A DNA stretch of 64,000 nucleotides from Oscillospiraceae bacterium (GCA_031271865.1 JAISUW010000044.1:589-64588); one strand, 5' to 3'. Numbered from the stretch's first letter, positions 5,123-51,490 are shown. Notes: generated from the sequence alone by a model not told the origin. A program made the numbers and translations.

Positions 5123-6070
5123 ATGTATACACTCGGCGTAGACTTGGGCGGAACGAACATCAGCGTAGGCGTGGTGGATGAGAAATTGGATATAGTGGGC
5201 AGAGGTGTGGTCAAAACCCGTGCCGGCCGCCCGGCAGCAGAAATCTTTGCCTCCATCAAAGAGGCTTGTGGCCTTGCTGTCCAAGATGCCGGCATAGCCA
5301 TGGAGGATGTCCAATCTATAGGGGTAGGCACCCCCGGCAGCGTCAATAAGGAGAACGGCTTTATTGAGTTCGCTAACAACCTGGGATTCCGGCAGGTGCC
5401 CGCTAAGGAAATGCTGGAGGCTCTCCTCCAAAAGCCTGTTTATCTGGACAACGATGCCAACTGCGCGGCGCTCGGCGAAGCTCTCGCGGGTGCCGGCAAA
5501 GGGACGCAGTCCTTTGTGGCCGTTACGCTCGGAACCGGCGTCGGCAGCGGTATTGTCATCAACAATAAAATCGTAACCGGTGTTAATGATGCCGCCGGCG
5601 AGATGGGGCATATGGTCGTCTGCATCGACGGTCTGCCCTGTAACTGCGGTCGGCGCGGCTGCTGGGAGAAGTATGCTTCCGCCCCCGCTCTCATTGACCA
5701 AACCAAAGAAGCCATGGAAATCCATAAGGATTCCAAGCTCTGGGAGATAGCCGGCGGTTCCTTGGACAATGTGGACGGCCGCACATCTTTCGATGCTTGG
5801 CGCGCCGGGGATAAAGCCGGTGTGTATGTCGTGGAACGCTATATGCATTACCTTGCGGTGGGATTGGGGAACATTATCAACGCCCTCCAACCGGAAGTTA
5901 TCTGCATCGGCGGCGGCATCGGTAATGAGGGGGAGAATCTTCTGAAGCCCCTCCGTGAGTTGGTCAAGAATGAACGCTACTCTATCTATGCCCGTGTTCA
6001 AACACGGCTTGTCCCGGCTGTGCTCGGTAATGACGCCGGTATCATCGGCGCGGCGGCACTTACCGAGTGA
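5123..6070 (+). CDS. glcK: ROK family glucokinase
   Basis: Contains the LGVDLGGTNISVGVVD ATP-binding motif and the ROK Cys motif CNCGRRGCWE. Confidence 0.85.
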   Translation: MYTLGVDLGGTNISVGVVDEKLDIVGRGVVKTRAGRPAAEIFASIKEACGLAVQDAGIAMEDVQSIGVGTPGSVNKENGFIEFANNLGFRQVPAKEMLEALLQKPVYLDNDANCAALGEALAGAGKGTQSFVAVTLGTGVGSGIVINNKIVTGVNDAAGEMGHMVVCIDGLPCNCGRRGCWEKYASAPALIDQTKEAMEIHKDSKLWEIAGGSLDNVDGRTSFDAWRAGDKAGVYVVERYMHYLAVGLGNIINALQPEVICIGGGIGNEGENLLKPLRELVKNERYSIYARVQTRLVPAVLGNDAGIIGAAALTE

Positions 6071-6203
6071 CGTGGGTATGGAGCAATGCTCCATCTTCGC
6101 CCCTTGCACCGAATGTATAAAGCACCGCCCGTGCCGCATACAATAAACAAGGGGCATCAGCCCTTTGGGTTGGTGCTGTCAAGCCGTCAAAAGGGAGACG
6201 CAC

Positions 6204-7106
6204 ATGGAGAATCGTTTTCAGAAGCTTTATCAGGCATTGGAGAACCAAGGCATACCCTATGCGAAAGACGTACCGATGTCCCAAAAGACAACATTCCGCA
6301 TCGGTGGTCCGGCGGCTTTGATGGTTTATCCGGGAGACGCGGCGCAAGTGCAGTCCGTACTGCGTCTTAGCGCAGAGGCAGGCGAAAGTGTATTCACATT
6401 AGGCCGCGGGAGTGACTTGCTGGTAAAAGACTCCGGTTTGGAGTGCGTGGTTCTCTCTACAGAACGGCTCACCGGCTTTTCTGTGAAAGGCAATACGGTG
6501 ACTGCCGGGGCAGGGGAGAAGCTGTCGGACTTATGTCTTTACGCGCAGCAGCAAGGACTGGCAGGCTTGGAGTTTGCGTTCGGCATTCCCGGTTCCGTTG
6601 GCGGCGGGGTATATATGAATGCCGGCGCCTATGGCGGCGAACTGAAAGATGTGTGCGTATCTGTCAAAGCCGTAACGGCGGATGGGGAGAGCACCCTCTT
6701 GGCAGAGGATTGCGCTTTCGGTTATCGGCACAGCTTCTTCACAGACCACCCAAGCTATGTTGTTACGGAGGCAAGCTTTGCCCTTTCTCCGGATGAACCG
6801 GCGGCTATAAGGGAGCGCATGGATGCCGTCATGCAGAAACGAAAAGACAAGCAGCCACTGGAATACCCCTCAGCCGGGAGCGTCTTCAAGCGGCCGCCGG
6901 GCTTCTTTGCCGGCGGACTGATAGAGCAGAACAATCTGAAAGGCAAGTCTATCGGCGGCGCACAGGTCTCGGAGAAGCACGCCGGCTTCATTGTCAACAA
7001 AGGCGGTGCTACCGCCAAGGATGTGCGCACACTCATAGCCCTCATTCAGGAAGTGGTTCAGAAGAATAACGGTGTCTTGCTGGAACCGGAGATAAAGTTT
7101 ATCTGA
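6204..7106 (+). CDS. murB: UDP-N-acetylenolpyruvoylglucosamine reductase
   Basis: Contains TTFRIGGPA, GRGSDLLV and the C-terminal SAGSVFKRP / GGAQVSEKHAGFIVN motifs. The ATG at 6204 follows AAGGGAG. Confidence 0.9.
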   Translation: MENRFQKLYQALENQGIPYAKDVPMSQKTTFRIGGPAALMVYPGDAAQVQSVLRLSAEAGESVFTLGRGSDLLVKDSGLECVVLSTERLTGFSVKGNTVTAGAGEKLSDLCLYAQQQGLAGLEFAFGIPGSVGGGVYMNAGAYGGELKDVCVSVKAVTADGESTLLAEDCAFGYRHSFFTDHPSYVVTEASFALSPDEPAAIRERMDAVMQKRKDKQPLEYPSAGSVFKRPPGFFAGGLIEQNNLKGKSIGGAQVSEKHAGFIVNKGGATAKDVRTLIALIQEVVQKNNGVLLEPEIKFI

Positions 7107-7140
7107 TGGATTCAGGCGGCTGAAAAATCTGCAAATACCT

Positions 7141-7169
7141 TTGACAAATGCGATTCAATGTGCTATAAT
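7141..7169 (+). promoter_or_regulatory. consensus sigma-A promoter for the paaK-like gene
   Basis: TTGACA (7141-7146), a 17-nt spacer, then TGcTATAAT (-10 at 7164-7169). Confidence 0.7.
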
Positions 7170-7184
7170 ATACGCATTGAATCG
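7151..7184. promoter_or_regulatory. perfect 10-bp inverted repeat bracketing the -10 box (putative operator)
   Basis: CGATTCAATG (7151-7160) and CATTGAATCG (7175-7184) are exact reverse complements separated by 14 nt that contain TATAAT. Confidence 0.5.
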
Positions 7185-7240
7185 TATCGGTCTGCCTAAC
7201 CGTTACTATTCCAATCACCGCACCGAAAGGAATGAAGTCC

Positions 7241-8569
7241 ATGGGTATGTTTTATCAACCGGAGATTGAATGCGCCTCCCGCGACTATCTCCATCACATC
7301 CAATCCGCACGTCTGATTCAGATGACCAAAAACTGCTATGAAAATGTCCCGTTCTATAAGAAGAAATTTGACGAAATCGGACTCTCGCCGGAGGATATTC
7401 ATTCCATTGACGATTTGCATAAGCTTCCCTTTACGGTGAAGCAAGACTTGCGCGACAACTATCCCTACGGACTCTTTGCCGTCCCGAAGGAGCGATTGAT
7501 TCGTATCCATGCCTCCAGCGGCACTACCGGCAAACAGACCGTTGTCGGCTATACAGCAGAAGATGTCCTCCATTGGGCAGAAGGGGCTGCCCGCGCTCTG
7601 GTAGCGGCCGGATGCACAAAAGATGACTACGTCCATGTATCCTATGGTTACGGACTTTTCACCGGAGGCTTGGGGCTGCATGACGGCGCCGAACTATTAG
7701 GCGCTACGGTCATTCCGGTAAGCAGCGGCAATACTGCCCGGCAGGTACAGATCCTGCAGGACTTCGGTTCGAACATTCTTTGCTGCACCCCTTCCTATGC
7801 CATGTTTATCGGCGAAACCATCGCACAGATGGGCATTGACCCGAAATCCCTCGCCGTGCGCGCCGGCATTTTCGGCGCCGAACCGTGGACGCCGGAAATG
7901 CGTGCCGGCATAGAAACGCTTCTGGACATCAAAGCGCATGATATTTACGGACTTTCGGAGATTGCCGGCCCCGGCGTGTCCTATGACTGCGAAGCCTTTA
8001 ACGGACTGCACGTCTGCGAGGATTACTTCTATCCCGAAATCATCGACCCCGAAACGCTTGAGCCGCTGCCGGACGGCGAATACGGCGAATTGGTCTTTAC
8101 CTGCATCGGCAAAGAGGCGCTCCCGCTGGTGCGCTACCGCACCCGCGACATCTGTGCCATCCACCGCGAAAAATGCTCGTGCGGACGCACACTTGTGCGG
8201 ATGTCCAAACCGGTCGGCCGTTCCGATGACATGCTCATCATTCGCGGCGTGAACGTCTTCCCGTCGCAGGTGGAACACGTCATCCTCCGCGAGGGCTACG
8301 AGCCGAACTACCTGATTGAGGTCAGCCGCCAGAACAATCTGGATGTTATGACCGTCAAAGTGGAAATGACCGCCGACAAGTTTACCGACTCTGTGCGCGA
8401 GATGGAGGCTCTGGAGAAGAAACTCTCCGCAGCCATGCTATCCACTTTGGGCGTGTCCGCTGCCATCAAGCTTGTGGAACCGCGCTCCCTCCCGCGCTCC
8501 GAGGGCAAGGCGAAACGTGTCATCGATAACCGCCACATCATTGATTATAATGTGGGCGAGAAGAAATAA
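7241..8569 (+). CDS. paaK: phenylacetate-CoA ligase family (PaaK-like aryl/indole-acetate CoA ligase)
   Basis: Contains NVPFYKKKFDE, LPFTVKQDLRDNYPYGLFAV and SSGTTGK. The start is ambiguous, with ATGs at 7232, 7241 and 7247. Confidence 0.85.
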   Translation: MGMFYQPEIECASRDYLHHIQSARLIQMTKNCYENVPFYKKKFDEIGLSPEDIHSIDDLHKLPFTVKQDLRDNYPYGLFAVPKERLIRIHASSGTTGKQTVVGYTAEDVLHWAEGAARALVAAGCTKDDYVHVSYGYGLFTGGLGLHDGAELLGATVIPVSSGNTARQVQILQDFGSNILCCTPSYAMFIGETIAQMGIDPKSLAVRAGIFGAEPWTPEMRAGIETLLDIKAHDIYGLSEIAGPGVSYDCEAFNGLHVCEDYFYPEIIDPETLEPLPDGEYGELVFTCIGKEALPLVRYRTRDICAIHREKCSCGRTLVRMSKPVGRSDDMLIIRGVNVFPSQVEHVILREGYEPNYLIEVSRQNNLDVMTVKVEMTADKFTDSVREMEALEKKLSAAMLSTLGVSAAIKLVEPRSLPRSEGKAKRVIDNRHIIDYNVGEKK

Positions 8570-8581
8570 TGCAAATACGAA

Positions 8582-8626
8582 GGGAAGCCCCTGCTGACTT
8601 TCGGGGGCGGGCTTCCCCTTTTTTTG
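8582..8626 (+). terminator. intrinsic terminator (possibly partial) between paaK and the ACT gene
   Basis: A GGGAAGCCC...GGGCTTCCC stem is followed by a T7 run. Confidence 0.6.
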
Positions 8627-8662
8627 TATCAATCCCTTATAAACTGACAGGAGGCATTCCCT

Positions 8663-9085
8663 ATGTCTAAGCAACTCTCCGTATTCCTTGAAAACGCACC
8701 CGGCCGCTTGGATGCTGTTCTCTCTACCTTGGCGGAAGCGGGTATCGACATTCATGCTTTCAGCATTGCAGAGCGTACCGAAACCGGCATTCTGCGGATG
8801 CTTGTCAATGATCCGGATAAGGGCGTCGCGGTTCTCTCTGCCGCCGGGATGACCAGCAAGGCAGCCGAGGTCATTCTTGTCAAAATTGGCGATGCGCCCG
8901 GTAGTGCCATCCGTCCGGTGCGTGTGCTGGCGGAAGCCGGTGTCAATGTGGAGTACGCTTTTGCCTACGAAAACCGCACCAAAGATGCCGCCATCCTTAT
9001 CCTGCGCGTCAATGACAACGCTCTTGCAGAAGAAGCCTTGTCCGGAGCGGGCATTGCTGTCGTTGCCCTAAGTGACATTTTTTGA
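8663..9085 (+). CDS. ACT domain-containing protein
   Basis: A 140-aa protein with two ACT-like beta-alpha-beta-beta-alpha-beta halves (LSVFLENAPGRL..., ILVKIGDAPGS...). It is a common neighbour of PaaK-like ligases in anaerobes. Confidence 0.7.
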   Translation: MSKQLSVFLENAPGRLDAVLSTLAEAGIDIHAFSIAERTETGILRMLVNDPDKGVAVLSAAGMTSKAAEVILVKIGDAPGSAIRPVRVLAEAGVNVEYAFAYENRTKDAAILILRVNDNALAEEALSGAGIAVVALSDIF

Positions 9086-9209
9086 CAAGCATACCTTATT
9101 TTAGTGTCACATATTGTCGAATATTTCCTGAACCTGTAAATTATTTGGTATTTGCTGATAACTATGATAATATTTACGGACTTTTTACAAAAAATCCGCA
9201 AATACTATC

Positions 9210-9238
9210 TTTACAAATGCTTATGAATGTGGTATAAT
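9210..9238 (+). promoter_or_regulatory. sigma-A promoter for the yerC-like gene
   Basis: TTTACA (9210-9215), a 17-nt spacer, then TGgTATAAT (9233-9238), inside a 250-bp AT-rich intergenic region. Confidence 0.6.
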
Positions 9239-9335
9239 ACTACCACAATTTAATGTATTAAATCAACCGAGCGGTATGAAACAGGTGGAGAGGGATTAAT
9301 ATCCATTTTTTGTCTGTGTTTAGGAGGAACCCCTG

Positions 9336-9659
9336 ATGAAAGAAGCCATTCACGAGGAGAGCATACAGCTTTTCTGTAAAGCCGTCCTGTCCCTGAAAAC
9401 AGAAAAGGAGATGCGGAGCTTTCTCGAAGACTTGTGTACCATGCCGGAACTCAAGGCATTTGCGCAACGCCTCATGGTAGCAAAGATGCTCAATGAAAAG
9501 CGCGTTTATGCAGAGATAGTGGACCGTACCGGCGCTTCCACCGCCACCATCAGCCGTGTCAACCGATCCTTGGTATACGGTAATGATACTTTCCACATGC
9601 TCTTCGAGCGCCTCTTCGGGGAGGAAGCCATCGCCGAGGCGAGGAGAAAAGTCGGCTGA
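9336..9659 (+). CDS. YerC/YecD family TrpR-related DNA-binding protein
   Basis: LCTMPELKAFAQRLMVAKML...GASTATISRVNRSL matches the YerC/TrpR-like HTH family. Confidence 0.8.
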   Translation: MKEAIHEESIQLFCKAVLSLKTEKEMRSFLEDLCTMPELKAFAQRLMVAKMLNEKRVYAEIVDRTGASTATISRVNRSLVYGNDTFHMLFERLFGEEAIAEARRKVG

Positions 9660-41974: not shown

Positions 41975-43573
41975 TTATTTGAAGCTCATGAGCTTATTCA
42001 CAGCGTTCAGATACGCCAAAATAGAAGATTCAATAATATCCGTCGACAAACCCCTCCCGGTGACGAGAACCCCATCGTCTTCCCCGGTATTGGAAGACAA
42101 ATCGAGGCGGTCGGACTCTTCATCCTCTGCCTTTGCTTTGGCGGCTGACCGACATCTGAGCTTGACGACGACCTCTCCCAGCGCATCTTTGCCGTCCGTG
42201 GCGGAGTGGATGGTGTAGGACTCGAGTTCCGGTTTCTCGCCGTCTTGGCAGGCGATGCCTGTAATCTTGTCGATGGCATTAAACGCTGCGTCAACCGGTC
42301 CGTCTCCGAGAGAGACATCCTCCAAAAGCTCTTCGCCTTTCTTCAGCCGCAGGGCACAGGAAGAACGGATGCCGTTTCCGGTATTGACCGCAAAGGTGTC
42401 GAGGGTAAAGAGGTTTTCTACATATTCGCGGGACTGCACGATGGCTTCCAAGTCGCCGTCCGTGAGTTCCTTTTTCTTGTCGGCGAGGTCTTTGAACTTG
42501 GCGAAGAACTTATCCAGTTCCGCCGGTTCGATTTTGTAACCCAACTCTGACAGGCGTTGCTCAAAGGCATGGCGGCCGGAGTGCTTGCCTAAGACGAGCG
42601 AGTTCTTCGGTACACCGATGGACTCCGGCGTCATAATCTCATAGGTGGTTTTTTCTGCAAGCACGCCATGCTGGTGGATGCCGCTTTCATGCGCAAAAGC
42701 GTTCTTGCCGACCACAGCCTTGTTGCGCGGGATGCTCTGCCCGATGATGTTGGAGAGCAAGCGTGATGTACGGTATATCTTCGTGGTGTCTATACCCGTC
42801 ACGGCATCATAGAAGTCGGCGCGCGTGCGCAGTGCCATGACGACTTCCTCAAGCGCGGCGTTCCCGGCACGCTCCCCAATGCCGTTGACGGTGCATTCAA
42901 TCTGCCGCGCCCCGGCTTTGACACCGGCTACGGAGTTCGCGACAGCCATCCCCAAGTCGTCGTGGCAATGCAGGGAGAGAATCGCCCGGTCGCAGTCCGG
43001 CACGGTTTCGCGCAGGTAGGCGATGAGTTCCCGCATTTCCATGGGCGTCGTGTAGCCCACGGTGTCCGGAATGTTGACGGTTGTGGCACCGGCGTTGATG
43101 GCAATCTCCACGACCTTCGCCAGGAACGCCCGGTCGGAACGCGTGGCATCCTCCGCCGAGAACTCCACATCTTCACAGAAGCGGCGGGCATAACGTACCA
43201 TCTTGTCTGTGCGCTCCAGCACCTGCTCCGGGGTCATGCGCAGTTTGTATTTCATATGCACGTCACTTGTCGCCAGAAAGACATGGAGGCGCGGATTGGC
43301 GGCATTCACCAAAGCCTGCACCGAGGCATCGATGTCTTTTTCCAGGCACCGGCACAGCGAGGCTACGGTGCAGTTGCGTACGCTCTCGGCGATCGTCTTT
43401 ACAGATTCGAAGTCCCCGGGGGAACTGACGGCAAAGCCGGCTTCAATGATGTCTACGCCCAGCGTCTCCAAGGCGCGGGCGACTTCAATTTTTTCCGCGA
43501 GATTCATGGAGCAGCCGGGGCTTTGTTCTCCGTCGCGCAGGGTGGTGTCAAAGATTTTTACTTGGTTAGGCAT
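41975..43573 (-). CDS. leuA: 2-isopropylmalate synthase
   Basis: [27 protein letters not shown] and the C-terminal LeuA dimerisation/regulatory domain. Confidence 0.95.
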
Positions 43574-43577
43574 AATG

Positions 43578-43691
43578 TTACACTCCGTTCGTTCCTATAG
43601 TAAAGTCTGTGTTGTAAAGGGGGAAGAAATTCACGCGGCTTGCAGATAATCCCCATAGTCGGAACGGTGTGTGGGCGTGGTTGGTCTTCAT
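43578..43691 (-). CDS. 37-codon upstream ORF abutting the leuA start
   Basis: GGAGG lies 5 nt before the ATG (43691). Translation: MKTNHAHTPFRLWGLSASRVNFFPLYNTDFTIGTNGV. The TAA stop (43580-43578) lies 4 nt before the leuA ATG, inside its RBS region. It is not Leu-rich. Confidence 0.3.
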   Translation of the reverse strand: MKTNHAHTPFRLWGLSASRVNFFPLYNTDFTIGTNGV

Positions 43692-43707
43692 AGATTCCTC
43701 CGTGATG

Positions 43708-43747
43708 TGATAAACAAGAACTCCCCTTCAGCGTTTGCCGGGGAGTT
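43708..43747 (-). terminator. terminator-like hairpin inside the leuA leader (putative attenuator)
   Basis: On the minus strand: AACTCCCC-(12 nt)-GGGGAGTT followed by CTTGTTTAT. Confidence 0.5.
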
Positions 43748-43915
43748 TCGTGTATATAAAGTAGTATGCACCTTATACCCGCACTCTGCCGCAAACGCCG
43801 ACCCTACCGCCGCTCAATAGCGGCAGCCAGAATAGGGGGAGATAGCGGTACATCGTGTCCATGCAGGTGTCCTCATATTGAACTTTGCTGATACATAGTA
43901 TGCTGAAGTATCTAT

Positions 43916-43944
43916 ATTGTAGCACGTCCGGCGCGATTTGTCAA
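43916..43944 (-). promoter_or_regulatory. sigma-A promoter for the leuA leader
   Basis: On the minus strand: TTGACA (43944-43939), a 17-nt spacer, then TACAAT (43921-43916). This gives a leader of roughly 340 nt. Confidence 0.6.
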
Positions 43945-44010
43945 GGGGGGAAGGTGAAAAATTTGCAGACTTCCCGGTGATAGAGGAATCGATGATTTGA
44001 AATCGACCTA

Positions 44011-44039
44011 TAGACAAATCTAAAAGAAAGTGCTATAAT
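44011..44039 (+). promoter_or_regulatory. sigma-A promoter for the glycyl-radical fusion gene
   Basis: TAGACA (44011-44016), a 17-nt spacer, then TGcTATAAT (44034-44039). Confidence 0.55.
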
Positions 44040-44115
44040 AAAGGTAACACCCTCAAACTTTCTTTTCGGACAAACTGTCTGTATGGAAGAGTATATCAAA
44101 GGAGATAGATGCCCC

Positions 44116-47100
44116 ATGTCCGTAGCCGTTATCCGCAAAACAAGCCGAACCGATACTTCTGCTGATACCCATACCATTGCAAAAATCCAGCGTACCTGTG
44201 TCCATGACGGTACCGGACTGCGTACGACCGTGTTCTTCAAAGGCTGCGGCTTACGCTGCCTGTGGTGCCAGAACCCGGAGAATTTGACCGCCGAACCGCG
44301 GGCGGAGGATTTGCATCTCACCACCGCCGAACTGGTGCAGATTCTGAAGAAAGACGCAAAGTACTACAAAGCTACCGGCGGAGGCGTGACGCTTTCCGGC
44401 GGGGAGCCGCTTTTGCAGAAGAAAGACTTCCTGCTGGAATTGCTGACAGCCCTGAAAGCCGAGGGTATACATACCGCTGTGGAAACAACGCTCCATGCGC
44501 CGTGGGAAACCATTGAAGCCGCGGCTCCCCTCGTGGATTTGTTTCTTGTGGACTTCAAAGTATGCGGCGATATCGCACTCCACGAAAAACTGACCGGACA
44601 AGCCGACACGCGCATCCGTGAGAATGCCAAGAAGCTCACCGACCTGCGGGGTACAGAAGGTATCCGCATACGAATGGTTGTAGTACCGGGCTGCAATGAC
44701 AGCGAAGCACAACTGCATGATGCGGCGGAGTATGTGCGTTTTCTCGGCTTTGATACCATAGAACTGCTCCAATACTGGACATTCTATGAGGAGAAAGCAG
44801 AGAAATTCGGTATCAAAATTCCGCAGCTCGGTATCCCGCAAAAGAAAGCATTGTCTGCTCTCCAAACCGCCGCTGCCTACTTGCGCGGCACAGGGCTCAA
44901 CGTTTGGAGCGACTCACTGCAGCCGCCGCCCTACCATGCGCAGTTCACGGATCGCGTGAAGCGGATTCGGCAGGAGCTGTGGGAGGCTCCGCGGGAGATT
45001 TGCTTTGAGACTTCTTTCCTCAAGACGGACTACTATAAAAAAGGAAAGGGCTTCTCCAAGCCCGTACCCATTCATCGCTCCGAACGGCTGAAGTATGTGC
45101 TGGGGAAGCGTACCATTCATGTCTACGATGGGGAACTGCTGGTCGGGAACTTTACGGCGAAGCGTGTAGCAGGGCAAATCTGGGAGGAGCAGTACGGCGC
45201 ACTGTATGTCACGTTCCTATACAAGGCCGCTCGGCAGACTCCTGTGAGCTTCTTTTCCACGAAAGAGGAGCGCAGCCGTTTCTATCGGGACGTGCTGCCC
45301 TACTGGCTCCCCAAATGTATAGTCGGCAAGTTCTTGGGTGCCAACGGCATCAAAGGGGCGTTGCAGACGTTTTCGAGTGTGGCGGAGCAGAAAGTGGGAT
45401 TCCTGAACAACTTCGCGGCCATTGCCCACTTTGTGCCGAACTACGAGCGTATCTTGGAGAACGGCACTACGGGTTTGAAGCGGGAATGCCTTCGCCTCAT
45501 GAAAGAGCATCCGGAGAATAACACAGACTTCTATAAGGGTGTCTATATCGGGCTGGACGCTTTGGAGCTGTTTGGTGCCCGCTACGCAGAGGAACTGAAG
45601 CGTCTGGCAAGAGACTGCACGGATTCCGTCCGCAAGGCGGAGTTGGAGCAGATGGCAGAAACCTGCGCCCGCGTCCCGAAGTACCCGGCTCGTACGTTCC
45701 GCGAAGCACTGCAAGCCATCACGTTCCTGCAGATTGCCCTTTGCACGGAAGCCTACGAGAACGCTGTGAGCTTTGGCCGCTTCGATCAATTGCTGAATCC
45801 CTACTATGAGCGGGATGTCGCCGCCGGCATCATTGACTACGAGGGAGCGAAGGAGCTTCTAGCCCTCTTTGTCCTGAAAATGGATGAGTGTATATTGGTC
45901 AATGACGGCGACAGCCTGCTGAATATCGGCAAGCTCTTTGAAACACTTTCCACCGACCAATCCATGACTTTCGGCGGTGATAAGCCTGATGGTACGGACG
46001 GTACAAACGACATCACCTATATGCTCTGCGATATATGCGAGTTGACACCCTTGGCGGTCAATATGTGCGGACGCGTCAGCCCGAACAGTCCGCAGAAGTA
46101 CCTCGACCGCTTGGCACAGCTCTATGTGGGCGGTTGCCCAATGCCGGAGCTGTTCAGTGACAAGGAATACTTCGATGCCCTGAAGCGGCATTACCACGAA
46201 TCGGATGCCAACTGCCGCGACTGGCCTGTCATCGGCTGCGTGGAGCCGTTTGCCAGTCACGAGCATTTCGGCAACACAGACAGTGCCAACATGAATGTTA
46301 CCCTCCCGCTTCTGCAAGCAATGAAAGGGCAAGAGAAGGATTTGTGGAACTTCGGGCTTGTTGAGCAACTCGAAAAGTTCGTGACCCGTGTTTTGGAGTT
46401 TTCTTTCTACAACAACAAGGAGAATGGCATCCGTACATGGCGGGAAAACCATGACGCTTGGCATGACAAGCTGCGCGGCTTGACGAACGTTAACCCCGCC
46501 GCTTCCATGGAGCAACTGGAGCGCCGCTACCAAGCACGATTGACGCACTTGGCGCAGTCCATCCTCGCCGATCAACAGAAGCTGGAGGCTATGCTGCAAA
46601 AGGATTTCCAGACACCGCTGGCCTCCTGCCTATACGAATCTTGCATGGAGCGCGGGAAAGATACATACGAGGGCGGTGCTGACTATAACTCCGCCGGCAT
46701 CCAAGCCGTCGGCATAACCGATGCCGCCGAGAGTTTCTATGTCATAGAAAAACTTGTGTTTGAGCAGCAGAAGTACACCATGGCAGAACTTATTGAAGCC
46801 GTGGATTCCAACTTTGCCGGGGGAAAAAATGAGCAAATCCGTTCGGACATACTTGCCCTGCCGCGCTTCGGCGACGACATGGACGACCGTGTGAACTACT
46901 GGGTGACGCGCGTCATGCAGATGTATAACATAGCCTTGGCACAGTGTCCCTTTACCGTGCGCCGCCGAGCACTTCCCGATGCGCGTGACCGCCGCGTCCT
47001 GCCATGCTATGCGGAGGATTTCACAGGCGATATTTACGATACACCTGCGGGCAAATCCGTCAACCCGCCCAATGCCTGCTTCACCGCAGGGTATTATGCG

Positions 47101-47541
47101 CTTAATACCTCCGACCGCTACGGCAAGTACAGCGGCGCGCTCCCGAGCGGCCGGCGCAAGGGTCTATCCCTCGCCAACAGCGTCATGCCGGACCATGGTG
47201 CGAGCTATGACGACCTCCTCTCCGCGCTGAATGATGTGGCAAAAATTAATTTTGCAGACTTCGCCGTCAATGGCACTACGCTTACACTGACCATTGATGC
47301 CGCGCTCTTCCCCGGCGAGGCAGGGGTACGCAACCTTTCGGAGATTTTCAAGACCTACCTCACTACCGGGGGGATGCAAATTCAGCCGAACGTGGTCAGC
47401 CGAGAATTGCTTTTGGAGGCCTATGAGCATCCCGAGAAGCACCCTTACCTTATGGTCCGCGTTGCAGGGTACTGCGCTTACTTCCAAGAGCTTTCAGATG
47501 AGCTGAAGAAGATAATAATAGCGCGTACGTGTTACAATTAA
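44116..47541 (+). CDS. fused glycyl-radical enzyme activase (radical SAM) and PFL2-type glycyl radical enzyme
   Basis: One uninterrupted ORF (the longest form starts at 44083; the ATG at 44116 follows AAAGGAGA). The N-terminus has GCGLRCLWCQNPE (CxxxCxxC) and GGGVTLSGGEPLL. The C-terminal ~870 aa have the GCVEP Cys loop and the MVRVAGYCAYF glycyl-radical motif. Confidence 0.85.
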   Translation: MSVAVIRKTSRTDTSADTHTIAKIQRTCVHDGTGLRTTVFFKGCGLRCLWCQNPENLTAEPRAEDLHLTTAELVQILKKDAKYYKATGGGVTLSGGEPLLQKKDFLLELLTALKAEGIHTAVETTLHAPWETIEAAAPLVDLFLVDFKVCGDIALHEKLTGQADTRIRENAKKLTDLRGTEGIRIRMVVVPGCNDSEAQLHDAAEYVRFLGFDTIELLQYWTFYEEKAEKFGIKIPQLGIPQKKALSALQTAAAYLRGTGLNVWSDSLQPPPYHAQFTDRVKRIRQELWEAPREICFETSFLKTDYYKKGKGFSKPVPIHRSERLKYVLGKRTIHVYDGELLVGNFTAKRVAGQIWEEQYGALYVTFLYKAARQTPVSFFSTKEERSRFYRDVLPYWLPKCIVGKFLGANGIKGALQTFSSVAEQKVGFLNNFAAIAHFVPNYERILENGTTGLKRECLRLMKEHPENNTDFYKGVYIGLDALELFGARYAEELKRLARDCTDSVRKAELEQMAETCARVPKYPARTFREALQAITFLQIALCTEAYENAVSFGRFDQLLNPYYERDVAAGIIDYEGAKELLALFVLKMDECILVNDGDSLLNIGKLFETLSTDQSMTFGGDKPDGTDGTNDITYMLCDICELTPLAVNMCGRVSPNSPQKYLDRLAQLYVGGCPMPELFSDKEYFDALKRHYHESDANCRDWPVIGCVEPFASHEHFGNTDSANMNVTLPLLQAMKGQEKDLWNFGLVEQLEKFVTRVLEFSFYNNKENGIRTWRENHDAWHDKLRGLTNVNPAASMEQLERRYQARLTHLAQSILADQQKLEAMLQKDFQTPLASCLYESCMERGKDTYEGGADYNSAGIQAVGITDAAESFYVIEKLVFEQQKYTMAELIEAVDSNFAGGKNEQIRSDILALPRFGDDMDDRVNYWVTRVMQMYNIALAQCPFTVRRRALPDARDRRVLPCYAEDFTGDIYDTPAGKSVNPPNACFTAGYYALNTSDRYGKYSGALPSGRRKGLSLANSVMPDHGASYDDLLSALNDVAKINFADFAVNGTTLTLTIDAALFPGEAGVRNLSEIFKTYLTTGGMQIQPNVVSRELLLEAYEHPEKHPYLMVRVAGYCAYFQELSDELKKIIIARTCYN

Positions 47542-47563: not shown

Positions 47564-47591
47564 TTGACAAATCAGCCGAATGTGGTATAAT
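47564..47591 (+). promoter_or_regulatory. sigma-A promoter for the transketolase genes
   Basis: TTGACA (47564-47569), a 16-nt spacer, then TGgTATAAT (47586-47591). Confidence 0.6.
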
Positions 47592-49575: not shown

Positions 49576-49658
49576 GCGGACGTGGCGGAATTGGCAGACG
49601 CGCCGGTCTTAGGAGCCGGTGGGCAACCATGCGGGTTCAAGCCCCGCCGTCCGCACCA
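49576..49658 (+). tRNA. tRNA-Leu (anticodon UAG), CCA encoded
   Basis: Acceptor stem GCGGACG/CGTCCGC, anticodon stem-loop CCGGT-CTTAGGA-GCCGG, a long variable arm, T-arm GCGGG-TTCAAGC-CCCGC and a terminal ACCA. Confidence 0.95.
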
Positions 49659-49665
49659 TAATCTT

Positions 49666-49706
49666 GAAAGAAGCCTTGTTAAATATGGCTTCTTTTGTGG
49701 TTTTGC
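49666..49706 (+). terminator. intrinsic terminator after tRNA-Leu
   Basis: A GAAAGAAGCC / GGCTTCTTT stem followed by TGTGGTTTTGC. Confidence 0.65.
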
Positions 49707-49780
49707 TTGGCAGCTTGTCCGAATTGTGCAATAACCGGAAAAATTCGGTAACAAAACTATCAATTTTCACAGTTTATCTA

Positions 49781-49809
49781 TTGACTTTTCAAGTAAGAAG
49801 TTCTATAAT
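49781..49809 (+). promoter_or_regulatory. sigma-A promoter for the LRR surface protein
   Basis: TTGACT (49781-49786), a 17-nt spacer, then TATAAT (49804-49809). Confidence 0.6.
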
Positions 49810-49846
49810 TAAGGTAGCATCTTTCAAATTATATGGAGGGATTTCT

Positions 49847-51490
49847 ATGAAAACACACACACTCAGGCGCGCCCTTGCGGTTCTGCTTACCCTACTGATG
49901 ATTGGCGGCGGCGGTATAGGACTGATGCCCGGTGCATCTGCAGACGGTTTGGATGACTGGACCTTTGAAGTCAGTTCAAACAAAGCAACCATCACAGGTT
50001 ATACCGGTTTCGCAACCGAAGTCACGACACCCACCAAAGACGCAAACAATGTCGCCGTCACGGGCATAGAAACCGGGGCGTTTACAAGCACATCCATCAC
50101 GAAGCTCACCATCTCCGAAGGCATCACGAAGATTGCCAGCGGCTCTTTCGCCGGCAATACAGTTCTGGAAGAGGTCGTGTTTCCCAAATCGCTTTCCATA
50201 ATCGGAACAAGCGGGACGGGTGCCTTTGAGGGCTGCACCGCGCTCACCACCATCCGTTTTACCCGCGGTACGAGTGCGCCGACGGCCAGCATAGGTGCAT
50301 CTGCATTCAAGGACTGTACCGCGCTGGTTTCCATCCGCATCCCCTCGAATTTCAAGACCATCGGTTTGAATTCGTTCAATGGTTGCTCCGCGTTGACTTC
50401 CGTGGTTCTGGAAGAGGGCGGTTCCGGCAGTTACTACATTTATGCCGGAGCATTTGCCAATTGCCGGGCATTGACTTCTATCCACATCCCCACGCTTTTC
50501 TCTTCTATTGCCTCCCCGGATGCCTCCGCCACTCCGCCGGTAGTCGGAGCGTTTGACGGTAGTCCGGATGTTGAAATCTGCACCACATCCATGGAGTCTA
50601 CACCCTATCGTTACGCTGAACAACTGGATTTGGATCGCGATGTCTGTGTGGCAGGTTCCTCAAACCACGCGCAACCGCTCAAGAGTTACTCCATGACAGT
50701 CAAAAACTGGGACGGCTCCATTCTGGTAGCGGCAACGACACGTGAAGTCGGCGATACTGTTGAACTCCCCACAACCGAACCAACGCGTGAAGGCTATACG
50801 TTCGAGGGTTGGGTCGTTTCTTCCGGCACCGGCTCCGTTAGCGAGAGCGGCGGCGTATATACTTTCACTTACGCTGTGAATGCAACCACCGGAAATGTAT
50901 CAAATGCCATTGTGCAGCCGCAATTCGTCGGCTTGGATTACAGCTTCAGCATCTCCGGCGGTACGGCGTTTGTCAGAGGCACCCAGACTGCCGCCGGCAC
51001 AACAGCGAAAGCAGGCGATACATTTGACATCCGTGCCGGGGATGCCCCCGCCGGTAAGGTGTTTGACAAATGGGTAGTGTCTTCCGGTACCGTAACAACA
51101 GCGACAAACAAGAACACCATCTTCACCATGGGTGCCGGCAATGCTACCGTCACCGCGACCTATAAGACCGATGTCCCGACAGCAAAGAGTGCCACGACCA
51201 TTGTTATCCCTTATAAAGGCAGCGCAATGCTGGAAGTTGCAACTGCCAATTCCGCCACCAATTACACCTATAACTGGACGGCAAATGTAGAGGGCGCTTC
51301 TTTACAGCTGAACGCGCAGGACACAACAGCAAAAATGCAGGTTGCGTCCATCCGCGGTAGCGGTTACAGCGGAACCGCAACAGTAACTGCAAGCACCTCC
51401 GCCGGCACGGTAACATTCAATGTGACCGTCCAAACACAATGGTGGCAGTGGCTCATCATCGTCCTCTTGCTCGGCTTCCTTTGGTATTGA
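49847..51490 (+). CDS. BspA-type leucine-rich-repeat surface protein with Listeria-Bacteroides (InlB B-type) repeats and a C-terminal TM anchor
   Basis: Has a signal peptide and repeated ...I..IG..AF.GC.AL..I.IP units. TREGYTFEGWVVSSG-type repeats follow, and the C-terminal segment is WWQWLIIVLLLGFLWY. The track start at 49619 overlaps the tRNA and is rejected. Confidence 0.85.
   Translation: MKTHTLRRALAVLLTLLMIGGGGIGLMPGASADGLDDWTFEVSSNKATITGYTGFATEVTTPTKDANNVAVTGIETGAFTSTSITKLTISEGITKIASGSFAGNTVLEEVVFPKSLSIIGTSGTGAFEGCTALTTIRFTRGTSAPTASIGASAFKDCTALVSIRIPSNFKTIGLNSFNGCSALTSVVLEEGGSGSYYIYAGAFANCRALTSIHIPTLFSSIASPDASATPPVVGAFDGSPDVEICTTSMESTPYRYAEQLDLDRDVCVAGSSNHAQPLKSYSMTVKNWDGSILVAATTREVGDTVELPTTEPTREGYTFEGWVVSSGTGSVSESGGVYTFTYAVNATTGNVSNAIVQPQFVGLDYSFSISGGTAFVRGTQTAAGTTAKAGDTFDIRAGDAPAGKVFDKWVVSSGTVTTATNKNTIFTMGAGNATVTATYKTDVPTAKSATTIVIPYKGSAMLEVATANSATNYTYNWTANVEGASLQLNAQDTTAKMQVASIRGSGYSGTATVTASTSAGTVTFNVTVQTQWWQWLIIVLLLGFLWY

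Follow-up and report, generated by a model that had tools for sequence, protein, structure and literature searches.

One gene in the 64,000-nucleotide stretch of Oscillospiraceae bacterium DNA analyzed here (GCA_031271865.1 JAISUW010000044.1:589-64588; the whole stretch is called the window) joins an N-terminal radical S-adenosylmethionine (SAM) activase and a C-terminal PFL2-type glycyl radical enzyme (GRE) in a single polypeptide. The architecture is conserved among homologs, and both modules belong to recognized protein families. We think it likely that the gene encodes a functional head-to-tail fusion in one chain, in which the activase leads through an ordered connector of ∼10 residues into the GRE. 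The product is probably a self-activating GRE, as predicted from its sequence. The main features of the gene are as follows (residue numbers use 1152-amino-acid [aa] numbering; 1141-aa numbering is obtained by subtracting 11).

44116..47541, plus strand: most likely coding sequence of the fusion, 1141 aa plus stop (open reading frame [ORF], ribosome-binding site, database protein, and Logan copy).
44116..44910, plus strand: radical-SAM GRE-activating module, aa 12-276, PflA-sized and without a ferredoxin-like insert (profiles and PflA alignment).
44245..44268, plus strand: CX3CX2C (C55, C59, C62), predicted ligand of the SAM-binding [4Fe-4S] cluster, in GCGLRCLWCQNPE (motif and family alignment).
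44377..44415, plus strand: SAM-binding "GGE" motif GGGVTLSGGEPLL, aa 99-111 (motif and family alignment).
44911..44940, plus strand: connector between the modules, SDSLQPPPYH, ∼10 residues, aa 277-286 (alignments and AlphaFold2 model).
44941..47538, plus strand: PFL2-type GRE module, aa 287-1152 (profiles and structure matches).
46234..46248, plus strand: Cys loop GCVEP, with C719 the predicted thiyl radical site and E721 the predicted general base (alignment to glycerol dehydratase C433/E435).
47458..47475, plus strand: glycyl radical motif RVAG1129YC (motif and family alignment).

Translation of the window recovered the stop-free frame of 1152 codons (44083..47541, plus strand) given in a preliminary description of this locus, and coordinate arithmetic placed every motif named there (C55/C59/C62, the SAM motif, C719/E721, and G1129) at exactly the reported positions. 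The Pfam profiles suggested in that description recognized both modules: Fer4_12 matched aa 42-147, Radical_SAM matched aa 50-209, PFL-like matched from aa 289, and Gly_radical matched aa 1031-1134, all well over their cutoffs.

The activase module scored 213.4 bits against TIGR02494 (PFLE_PFLC, PFL2-type GRE activases; cutoff, 174.35) and 144.7 bits against TIGR02493, the PflA model, which is under the cutoff of 231.75. The stretch with C55 carries GCGLRC59LWC62QNPE (nt 44245-44268). An eight-Cys ferredoxin-like domain is present in the vast majority of GRE activases and is absent only from the pyruvate formate-lyase (PFL)-activating enzyme (PFL-AE) and the class III ribonucleotide reductase (RNR) activase; its role in most activases is unknown (PMC13450708). 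In the window protein, the 36 residues from C62 to G99 contain no Cys, and the match to TIGR02494 falls into two stretches that skip profile positions ∼45 to 104. The insert of ∼8 Cys residues is thus missing, as first described. Residues 14 to 221 of PflA (PDB 3c8f, 245 aa) align to aa 40-251 (E = 1.8e−25), and the earlier comparison with PflA holds for size, while the profile score places the module in the PFL2-type lineage. The nearest stand-alone activases (33 to 41% identity, E of ∼1e−48, ∼300 aa) all have Fer4 domains. Because the TIGR02494 score exceeds the PflA-model score and the nearest stand-alone relatives keep Fer4, the module is best read as a PFL2-lineage activase that would have lost its ferredoxin-like insert secondarily.

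Both GRE profiles matched the C-terminal module far over cutoff (PF02901, 398.6 bits; PF01228, 75.6 bits). The top-scoring GRE model was TIGR01774 (PFL2/glycerol dehydratase), with 435.2 bits over aa 288-1150 against a cutoff of 678.2, and the module reached none of the NCBIfam equivalog cutoffs. The Cys loop reads VIGC719VE721P (Cys codon, 46237-46239), and the radical motif reads MVRVAG1129YCAYF (Gly codon, 47467-47469). In alignment with glycerol dehydratase (GDH), C719/E721 correspond to C433/E435, H449 to H164, and D733 to D447, in keeping with the loop of eliminase type, a single Cys plus Glu, that the preliminary description had recognized. The loop also aligns with those of 1,2-propanediol dehydratase and Archaeoglobus fulgidus PFL2 (2f3o). 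GDH residues H281/S282 ("GHS") are replaced by N560/A561 ("YENAVS") and Y339 is replaced by D625, all invariant in the family; H281 and S282 are the substrate-binding pair of GDH (structures 1r8w/1r9d). The GRE fold of the AlphaFold2 (AF2) model matched GRE and eliminase structures with template modeling (TM) scores of 0.83 to 0.89 at 21 to 26% identity (Foldseek). The top matches by sequence and by fold were all PFL2-type eliminases or relatives without known function (2f3o, 5i2a, 9rco, 1r8w, PflD, YbiW, HypD, and CutC), with A. fulgidus PFL2 giving an E value of 6e−88 and a target TM score of 0.89.

Further cysteines of the GRE module are conserved. C1131, two residues after the radical Gly in RVAGYC (47473-47475), and C1150 in the C-terminal RTCY (47530-47532) are invariant, family-specific residues of the glycyl radical domain, and C528, C554, and C652 vary little or not at all in the family. 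These residues might form a disulfide or a metal site or serve as an electron path.

A Logan contig assembled independently from run SRR14710912 encodes the identical 1141-aa protein beside the same LeuA and split-transketolase neighbors. It has no stop or frameshift between the modules, the fault that the preliminary description had raised against its own proposal. A search of 5.8 billion proteins found 573 relatives. All four Pfam domains are present in 119 of the 120 best relatives, which are 1073 to 1143 aa long and 50 to 67% identical to the window protein; the exception is a truncated sequence of 1001 aa. The preliminary description had proposed that homologs be checked for the fused architecture, which these 119 keep, and for the nearest characterized enzymes, which by structure are PFL2-type eliminases. 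When one genome per GTDB species was scanned, relatives were confirmed in at least 592 genome stretches, and 53 of the best 80 are core-family loci (47 to 65% identity). Core loci were found in Oscillospiraceae, Christensenellales, Smithella/Syntrophaceae, Desulfomonilia, Myxococcota, Bacteriovoracaceae, Spirochaetota/Leptospira, Hydrogenedentota, and Asgard archaea (Promethearchaeota, Sigynarchaeum), and this distribution agrees with taxonomy only in part. The architecture is therefore not confined to this genome but belongs to a populous family with generic annotation, listed in databases as "radical SAM protein," "pyruvate formate lyase family protein," or "formate C-acetyltransferase."

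Conservation was assessed in an alignment of 120 family members. The cluster ligands C55, C59, and C62 are retained as Cys wherever the sequence spans them (119/119), the GGEP motif is conserved, and H449, C719, E721, D733, G1129, and C1131 are invariant (120/120), as are the motifs GCVEP and RVAGY. Mean column identity is 55 to 75% in the activase module and 70 to 90% in the GRE core, and this pattern indicates that both modules are under selection. Among 1.84 billion representatives clustered at 50% identity, the core family appears as one full-length representative (P0241, 1219 bits), and the next matches score 599, 480, and 427 bits. The core family forms a compact, well-separated clade with a long stem. 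Short matches that resemble stand-alone activases close to the core family come mostly from short contigs, several annotated "partial," and look like fragments from contig ends. An apparently natural split version on a 1.07-Mb contig (P0126/L087) was rejected, as it is a frameshifted fused gene in which homology continues in a second frame and overlaps at the break. At this locus (6001-9346), a single frameshift near 6752-6789 yields a 292-aa "activase" and a 778-aa "GRE"; this probably reflects a long-read indel or pseudogene formation. Frameshifted copies of this kind could lead surveys to count unfused members wrongly.

The junction between the modules has an almost constant length. From K239, the last activase anchor, to A286, the first GRE anchor, there are 46 residues in 116 of the 120 family sequences and 45 in the other 4. 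Most of this segment is the C-terminal element of the activase itself: since the PflA alignment reaches aa 251 and the GRE N terminus (2f3o residue 4) aligns at aa 290, the true connector comprises ∼10 residues. An AF2 model built from a 39-sequence alignment had a mean predicted local distance difference test score (pLDDT) of 81.6 and a predicted TM score of 0.86, and residues 251-290 had pLDDT values of 89 to 95. The junction is thus modeled as ordered and not as a floppy linker. Low confidence was confined to the N-terminal 15 residues, aa 964-999, and the surroundings of the Gly loop (pLDDT, 52 to 63). In this model, a short, ordered connector of fixed length argues for a defined geometry between activase and GRE over a loose tether.

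Our best reading of these data is a self-contained enzyme that would activate itself in cis or in trans within a dimer. Self-activation is indirectly favored by the ordered junction of fixed length, the invariant catalytic motifs, and the lack of another activase nearby. Under anoxia, the N-terminal module would bind a [4Fe-4S] cluster via C55/C59/C62, together with SAM. After reduction, the module would cleave SAM to a 5′-deoxyadenosyl radical, which would take the C-alpha hydrogen of G1129 in the same chain or in the partner chain of a GRE homodimer. The glycyl radical would then give rise to a thiyl radical on C719, and, with E721 as the putative general base, a small hydroxylated compound would undergo a reaction of the 1,2-elimination type. 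The fusion would form a one-gene unit with 1:1 stoichiometry for which a partner gene is dispensable. Such a self-sufficient module would suit the stand-alone position of the gene in unrelated neighborhoods and its spread over distant phyla; the 1:1 stoichiometry, the stand-alone position, and the mixed distribution fit a transferable one-gene module. We tentatively entertain a more far-reaching proposal, although we doubt it: an obligate intramolecular or intradimer activation machine whose connector would pre-dock a minimal, ferredoxin-less activase, so that installing and reinstalling the radical would take no partner protein or auxiliary clusters, and whose GRE would catalyze a reaction as yet unknown for GREs on a common metabolite of anaerobes from Clostridia to Asgard archaea. 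The suggestion of a reaction new to GREs comes from the distinct active site (YENAVS, invariant Asp625) and the lack of pathway partners.

Several points weigh against a self-activating enzyme of the eliminase type. Activases are normally catalytic, so a 1:1 fusion is unnecessary for function. The GRE module falls under the TIGR01774 cutoff (435 versus 678 bits) and under every equivalog cutoff, and with Asn-Ala for His-Ser and Asp for Y339, its reaction could be unlike the eliminations known so far. Near the Gly loop, the AF2 model has low confidence. Radical installation by the fused module, the choice between cis and trans activation, and the type of reaction are all inferred. Finally, in 4-hydroxyphenylacetate decarboxylase (HPAD), the ferredoxin-like domain is reportedly needed for a lasting radical (a reference within PMC13450708), and the fusion activase lacks this domain.

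There is next to no chance that the fusion is an assembly or sequencing artifact, such as an indel that merged adjacent activase and GRE genes. Distant relatives do have adjacent activase-then-GRE pairs, some of them in frame with a single stop at codon ∼295 to 299, and frameshifted copies are known in long-read assemblies. However, the identical 1141-aa protein occurs in the independent Logan assembly, 119 homologs with identities as low as 50% show the fusion and a junction of fixed length, and the one "split" core case looked at was a frameshifted fused gene. It is also improbable that the N-terminal module is vestigial, regulatory, or mainly trans-acting on other GREs, with a separate activase switching on the fusion GRE. 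In favor of that account, the module is missing the domain found in nearly all eliminase-type activases; cis activation by the fused module is inferred, and other activases could exist outside the window. Invariant cluster and SAM motifs and a mean column identity of 55 to 75% would be unexpected for a vestige, though, and the junction is fixed in length and ordered in the AF2 model. Moreover, neither the 64-kb window nor the flanks of related loci yielded a second activase or GRE, and PFL-AE and the class III RNR activase function without a ferredoxin domain (PMC13450708).

We likewise think it unlikely that the GRE is an ordinary enzyme of known specificity that happens to be fused. PFL is suggested by the JGI name "formate C-acetyltransferase," but the loop has a single Cys (VIGCVEP) and no CC dyad, and TIGR01255 gives 99.9 bits against a cutoff of 994, from the C terminus only. 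A B12-independent glycerol or 1,2-propanediol dehydratase is suggested by the top structural matches, which are to these enzymes, and by GCVEP, H449, and D733, which match C433/E435, H164, and D447 of GDH. Against this stand the family-invariant replacements of H281/S282 by N560/A561 and of Y339 by D625, identities of just 23 to 26%, the unmet equivalog cutoffs, and the finding of no aldehyde dehydrogenase, 1,3-propanediol dehydrogenase, or microcompartment genes near the fusion gene. A C–C bond-forming GRE like the X-succinate synthases, acting on hydrocarbon- or lipid-derived substrates, is a very unlikely alternative reading of the same module. A. fulgidus PFL2, the closest structure by sequence, has been proposed to act in alkane oxidation (a reference within PMC13450708), the family is common in Smithella/Syntrophia, where a FadR/LldR-like regulator is directly upstream at 10 loci, and lipid genes lie upstream at one spirochete locus. 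The matches to benzylsuccinate synthase and MasD are nevertheless far weaker (E of 1e−25 to 1e−35 versus 1e−88 for eliminases), genes for beta or gamma subunits are not adjacent, and saccharolytic Clostridia carry the family just as well. As for the regulator, it is under all NCBIfam cutoffs, which gives no indication of its effector.

A self-activating PFL2-type fusion can be compared with known systems. Eliminase GREs with separate activases (1r8w, 5i2a/9rco, CutC, and HypD) share with it the ten-stranded barrel (TM scores of 0.83 to 0.87), the catalytic Cys and Glu of GCVEP, the RVAGY motif, equivalents of H164 and D447, and the TIGR02494 activase lineage. In contrast to them, the window activase is fused to the GRE N terminus and lacks the eight-Cys insert, the GRE is 21 to 26% identical, Asn-Ala and Asp stand in place of GDH His-Ser and Y339, and neither an operon partner nor microcompartment genes are present. 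A. fulgidus PFL2, whose function is also unassigned, is the best PDB sequence match and shares YE[NQ]A[VI]S ("YEQAIS") in place of GHS, but it is unfused, 26% identical (Foldseek), and has Asn at the position of the invariant Asp625. Escherichia coli PflA (3c8f) and NrdG are radical-SAM-only activases that likewise lack a ferredoxin-like domain. PflA has a similar spacing from CX3CX2C to GGE but is itself a separate protein.

The only GRE-activase fusion that our literature search found described is NrdD-NrdG. In eukaryotes, class III RNR and its activase occur in a single ORF, and it was proposed that fusion possibly helps transferred prokaryotic operons to become fixed (PMC3019208). This is a precedent for joining a GRE to its activase, but it differs in GRE class (RNR, not PFL-like) and in its eukaryotic hosts. 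The notation NrdDG in that paper suggests that the module order is opposite to that of the window fusion, and the two fusion events are not homologous. A full-text literature search found no description of a PFL-type activase-GRE fusion, although a passing mention in older reviews is possible. The words "fused" and "fusion" are both absent from a 2026 GRE review (PMC13450708).

Fused architectures also occur outside the core family. The distant tier of the genome scan (25 to 33% identity) seemed fused by query coverage but was actually mixed. Loci L056, L058, and L062 (8001-11250) have truly fused, stop-free ORFs in the order activase-then-GRE that keep the eight-Cys insert, with 94 residues between CX3CX2C and GGEP. 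Two more fusions in this order, P0243 and P0244, likewise keep the insert and contain Fer4 domains; the clade of L056, L058, L062, and P0243, as well as P0244, is 32 to 37% identical to the window protein. In many other distant matches, an activase gene precedes a GRE gene, and the two are divided by an in-frame stop at codon ∼295 to 299 or lie in different frames. Three loci that were considered as fused genes in cultured hosts (L070 to L072, Gammaproteobacteria and Sphingosinicellaceae; query residues 24 to 1138 covered) were rejected as canonical GRE-then-activase pairs in different frames; this order was seen in the isolates Thalassolituus marinus, Parahaliea mediterranea, and Sphingosinicellaceae M-36. 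The scan thus gave no cultured host with a fused gene. A rough neighbor-joining (distance) tree of the GRE domain nested the L056/P0243 clade among unfused activase-then-GRE pairs and placed P0244 as the nearest sister of the core family. On the basis of these placements, such gene pairs probably became fused on more than one occasion. Within the core lineage, the insert may have been lost after the modules were joined.

The chemistry and both folds were already known. A conserved fusion that is rigidly joined, has no insert, and differs in its active site appears to be undescribed, and the novelty is an uncharacterized family rather than a unique gene, as at least two other fused lineages exist. 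It has long been a question how an activase gains access to the glycine buried within a GRE, and to our knowledge the sole activase-substrate structure is that of PFL-AE with a short peptide. A natural, ferredoxin-less 1:1 fusion with an ordered, fixed junction offers a single-gene system for questions about the activation complex and the ferredoxin domain, and it could serve engineering as a portable one-gene GRE. If a pre-docked machine were true, it would be the first natural system for trapping a complete activase-GRE activation complex by cryo-electron microscopy or crystallography. Members of the family are widespread among gut, sediment, and syntrophic anaerobes as well as Asgard archaea. 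Given this wide spread, the distinct active site, and the lack of any reaction assigned to the family, it probably represents undiscovered GRE chemistry or an undiscovered substrate.

The remaining features of the gene and its immediate neighbors are as follows.

44011..44039, plus strand: promoter-like site TAGACA-17 nt-TATAAT, 11/12, TG-extended, a putative promoter (consensus scan alone).
44098..44105, plus strand: Shine-Dalgarno sequence AAAGGAGA, 10 nt 5′ of ATG 44116 (sequence inspection).
46972..47079, plus strand: insertion of ∼36 aa, aa 964-999, particular to the window protein (family alignment; disordered in AF2).
41975-43573, minus strand: leuA, divergent, upstream.
47564-47591: TTGACA-16-TATAAT, a perfect sigma-70 consensus with TG extension, putative transketolase promoter (consensus scan).

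The preliminary description began the ORF at 44083. The frame is open from that codon, but the start is likely the second ATG, 33 nt later at 44116 (M12, 11 codons 3′), since AAAGGAGA precedes this ATG, the first ATG has no ribosome-binding site, and the database protein is 1141 aa long. That protein (P0001) is 100% identical to the fusion. The promoter claimed for the gene corresponds to the promoter-like site at 44011-44039, ∼77 nt 5′ of the likely start codon. Within the coding sequence, the insertion at aa 964-999 holds PDARDRRVLPCYAEDFTGDIYDTPAGKSVNPP and has pLDDT values of <50; it extends a surface segment to 54 aa, compared to 18 aa in 113 of 120 relatives. Three close relatives have shorter insertions in the same segment, which points to an indel hotspot.

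The neighbors named in the preliminary description, divergent leuA upstream and a separately promoted split transketolase downstream, were both recovered, the latter with its perfect sigma-70 consensus inside the 93-nt gap 3′ of the GRE stop codon. The stretch between the fusion gene and the transketolase showed no terminator-like site. A mechanical ORF for the N-terminal half of the transketolase begins at 47580; the likely true start is ATG 47635, with ribosome-binding site GGAAAGGA, and the product is 280 aa in the Logan gene call. The leuA leader comprises ∼340 nt (43574-43944, minus strand), 3′ of a promoter-like site at 43944-43916. Rfam gave zero matches in 43400-44300 at E ≤ 0.1, and neither a T-box nor another known leader was found there. 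The rest of the window contains housekeeping and sugar-utilization genes.

Gene context was surveyed in 54 non-redundant core loci by ORF calling, clustering, and Pfam analysis of the nearest upstream and downstream genes. The census is approximate, as the simple ORF caller mis-called antisense ORFs over the transketolase of the window. Across the 54 loci, 87 flanking proteins gave 134 Pfam families and no conserved metabolic partner. The fusion gene behaves as a stand-alone unit, and the substrate is consequently not inferable from context. This extends to the related loci the earlier view that the neighbors in the window yield no clear substrate clue. Links to a sulfoquinovose/transketolase or an ether-lipid pathway were considered and found no consistent support.

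The sole recurrent neighbor is a GntR/FCD regulator of ∼235 aa, which lies directly upstream on the same strand, at 15 to 134 nt, in ten Syntrophia/Thermodesulfobacteriota loci (L016 [7200-7922], L018, L019, L022, L026, L027, L033, L039, L052, and L053). It resembles LldR, PdhR, FadR, and NanR about equally and is a possible handle on an effector or substrate. In six Clostridia loci, MFS_2 transporters lie 0.1 to 5 kb from the fusion gene; MFS_2 genes are common in these genomes, and the window has two. At the spirochete locus L006/L007 (1741-7818), a run of lipid-type genes that other loci do not have lies ahead of the fused gene, with FAD_binding_4/FAD-oxidase_C (alkyl-DHAP-synthase-like), ABHD18-like, AMP-binding plus acyltransferase, and DUF1295/steroid-reductase-like members. 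Elsewhere in the window, two tandem DUF4474 paralogs (29285-31411) are followed by an MFS_2 transporter and a GH2 glycosidase (to 34879). Downstream of the transketolase, 49619-51490 encodes a 623-aa LRR_5/Flg_new (BspA-like) surface protein, and a similar giant LRR_5 protein is found near the fused gene in the Christensenellales loci L003 to L005.

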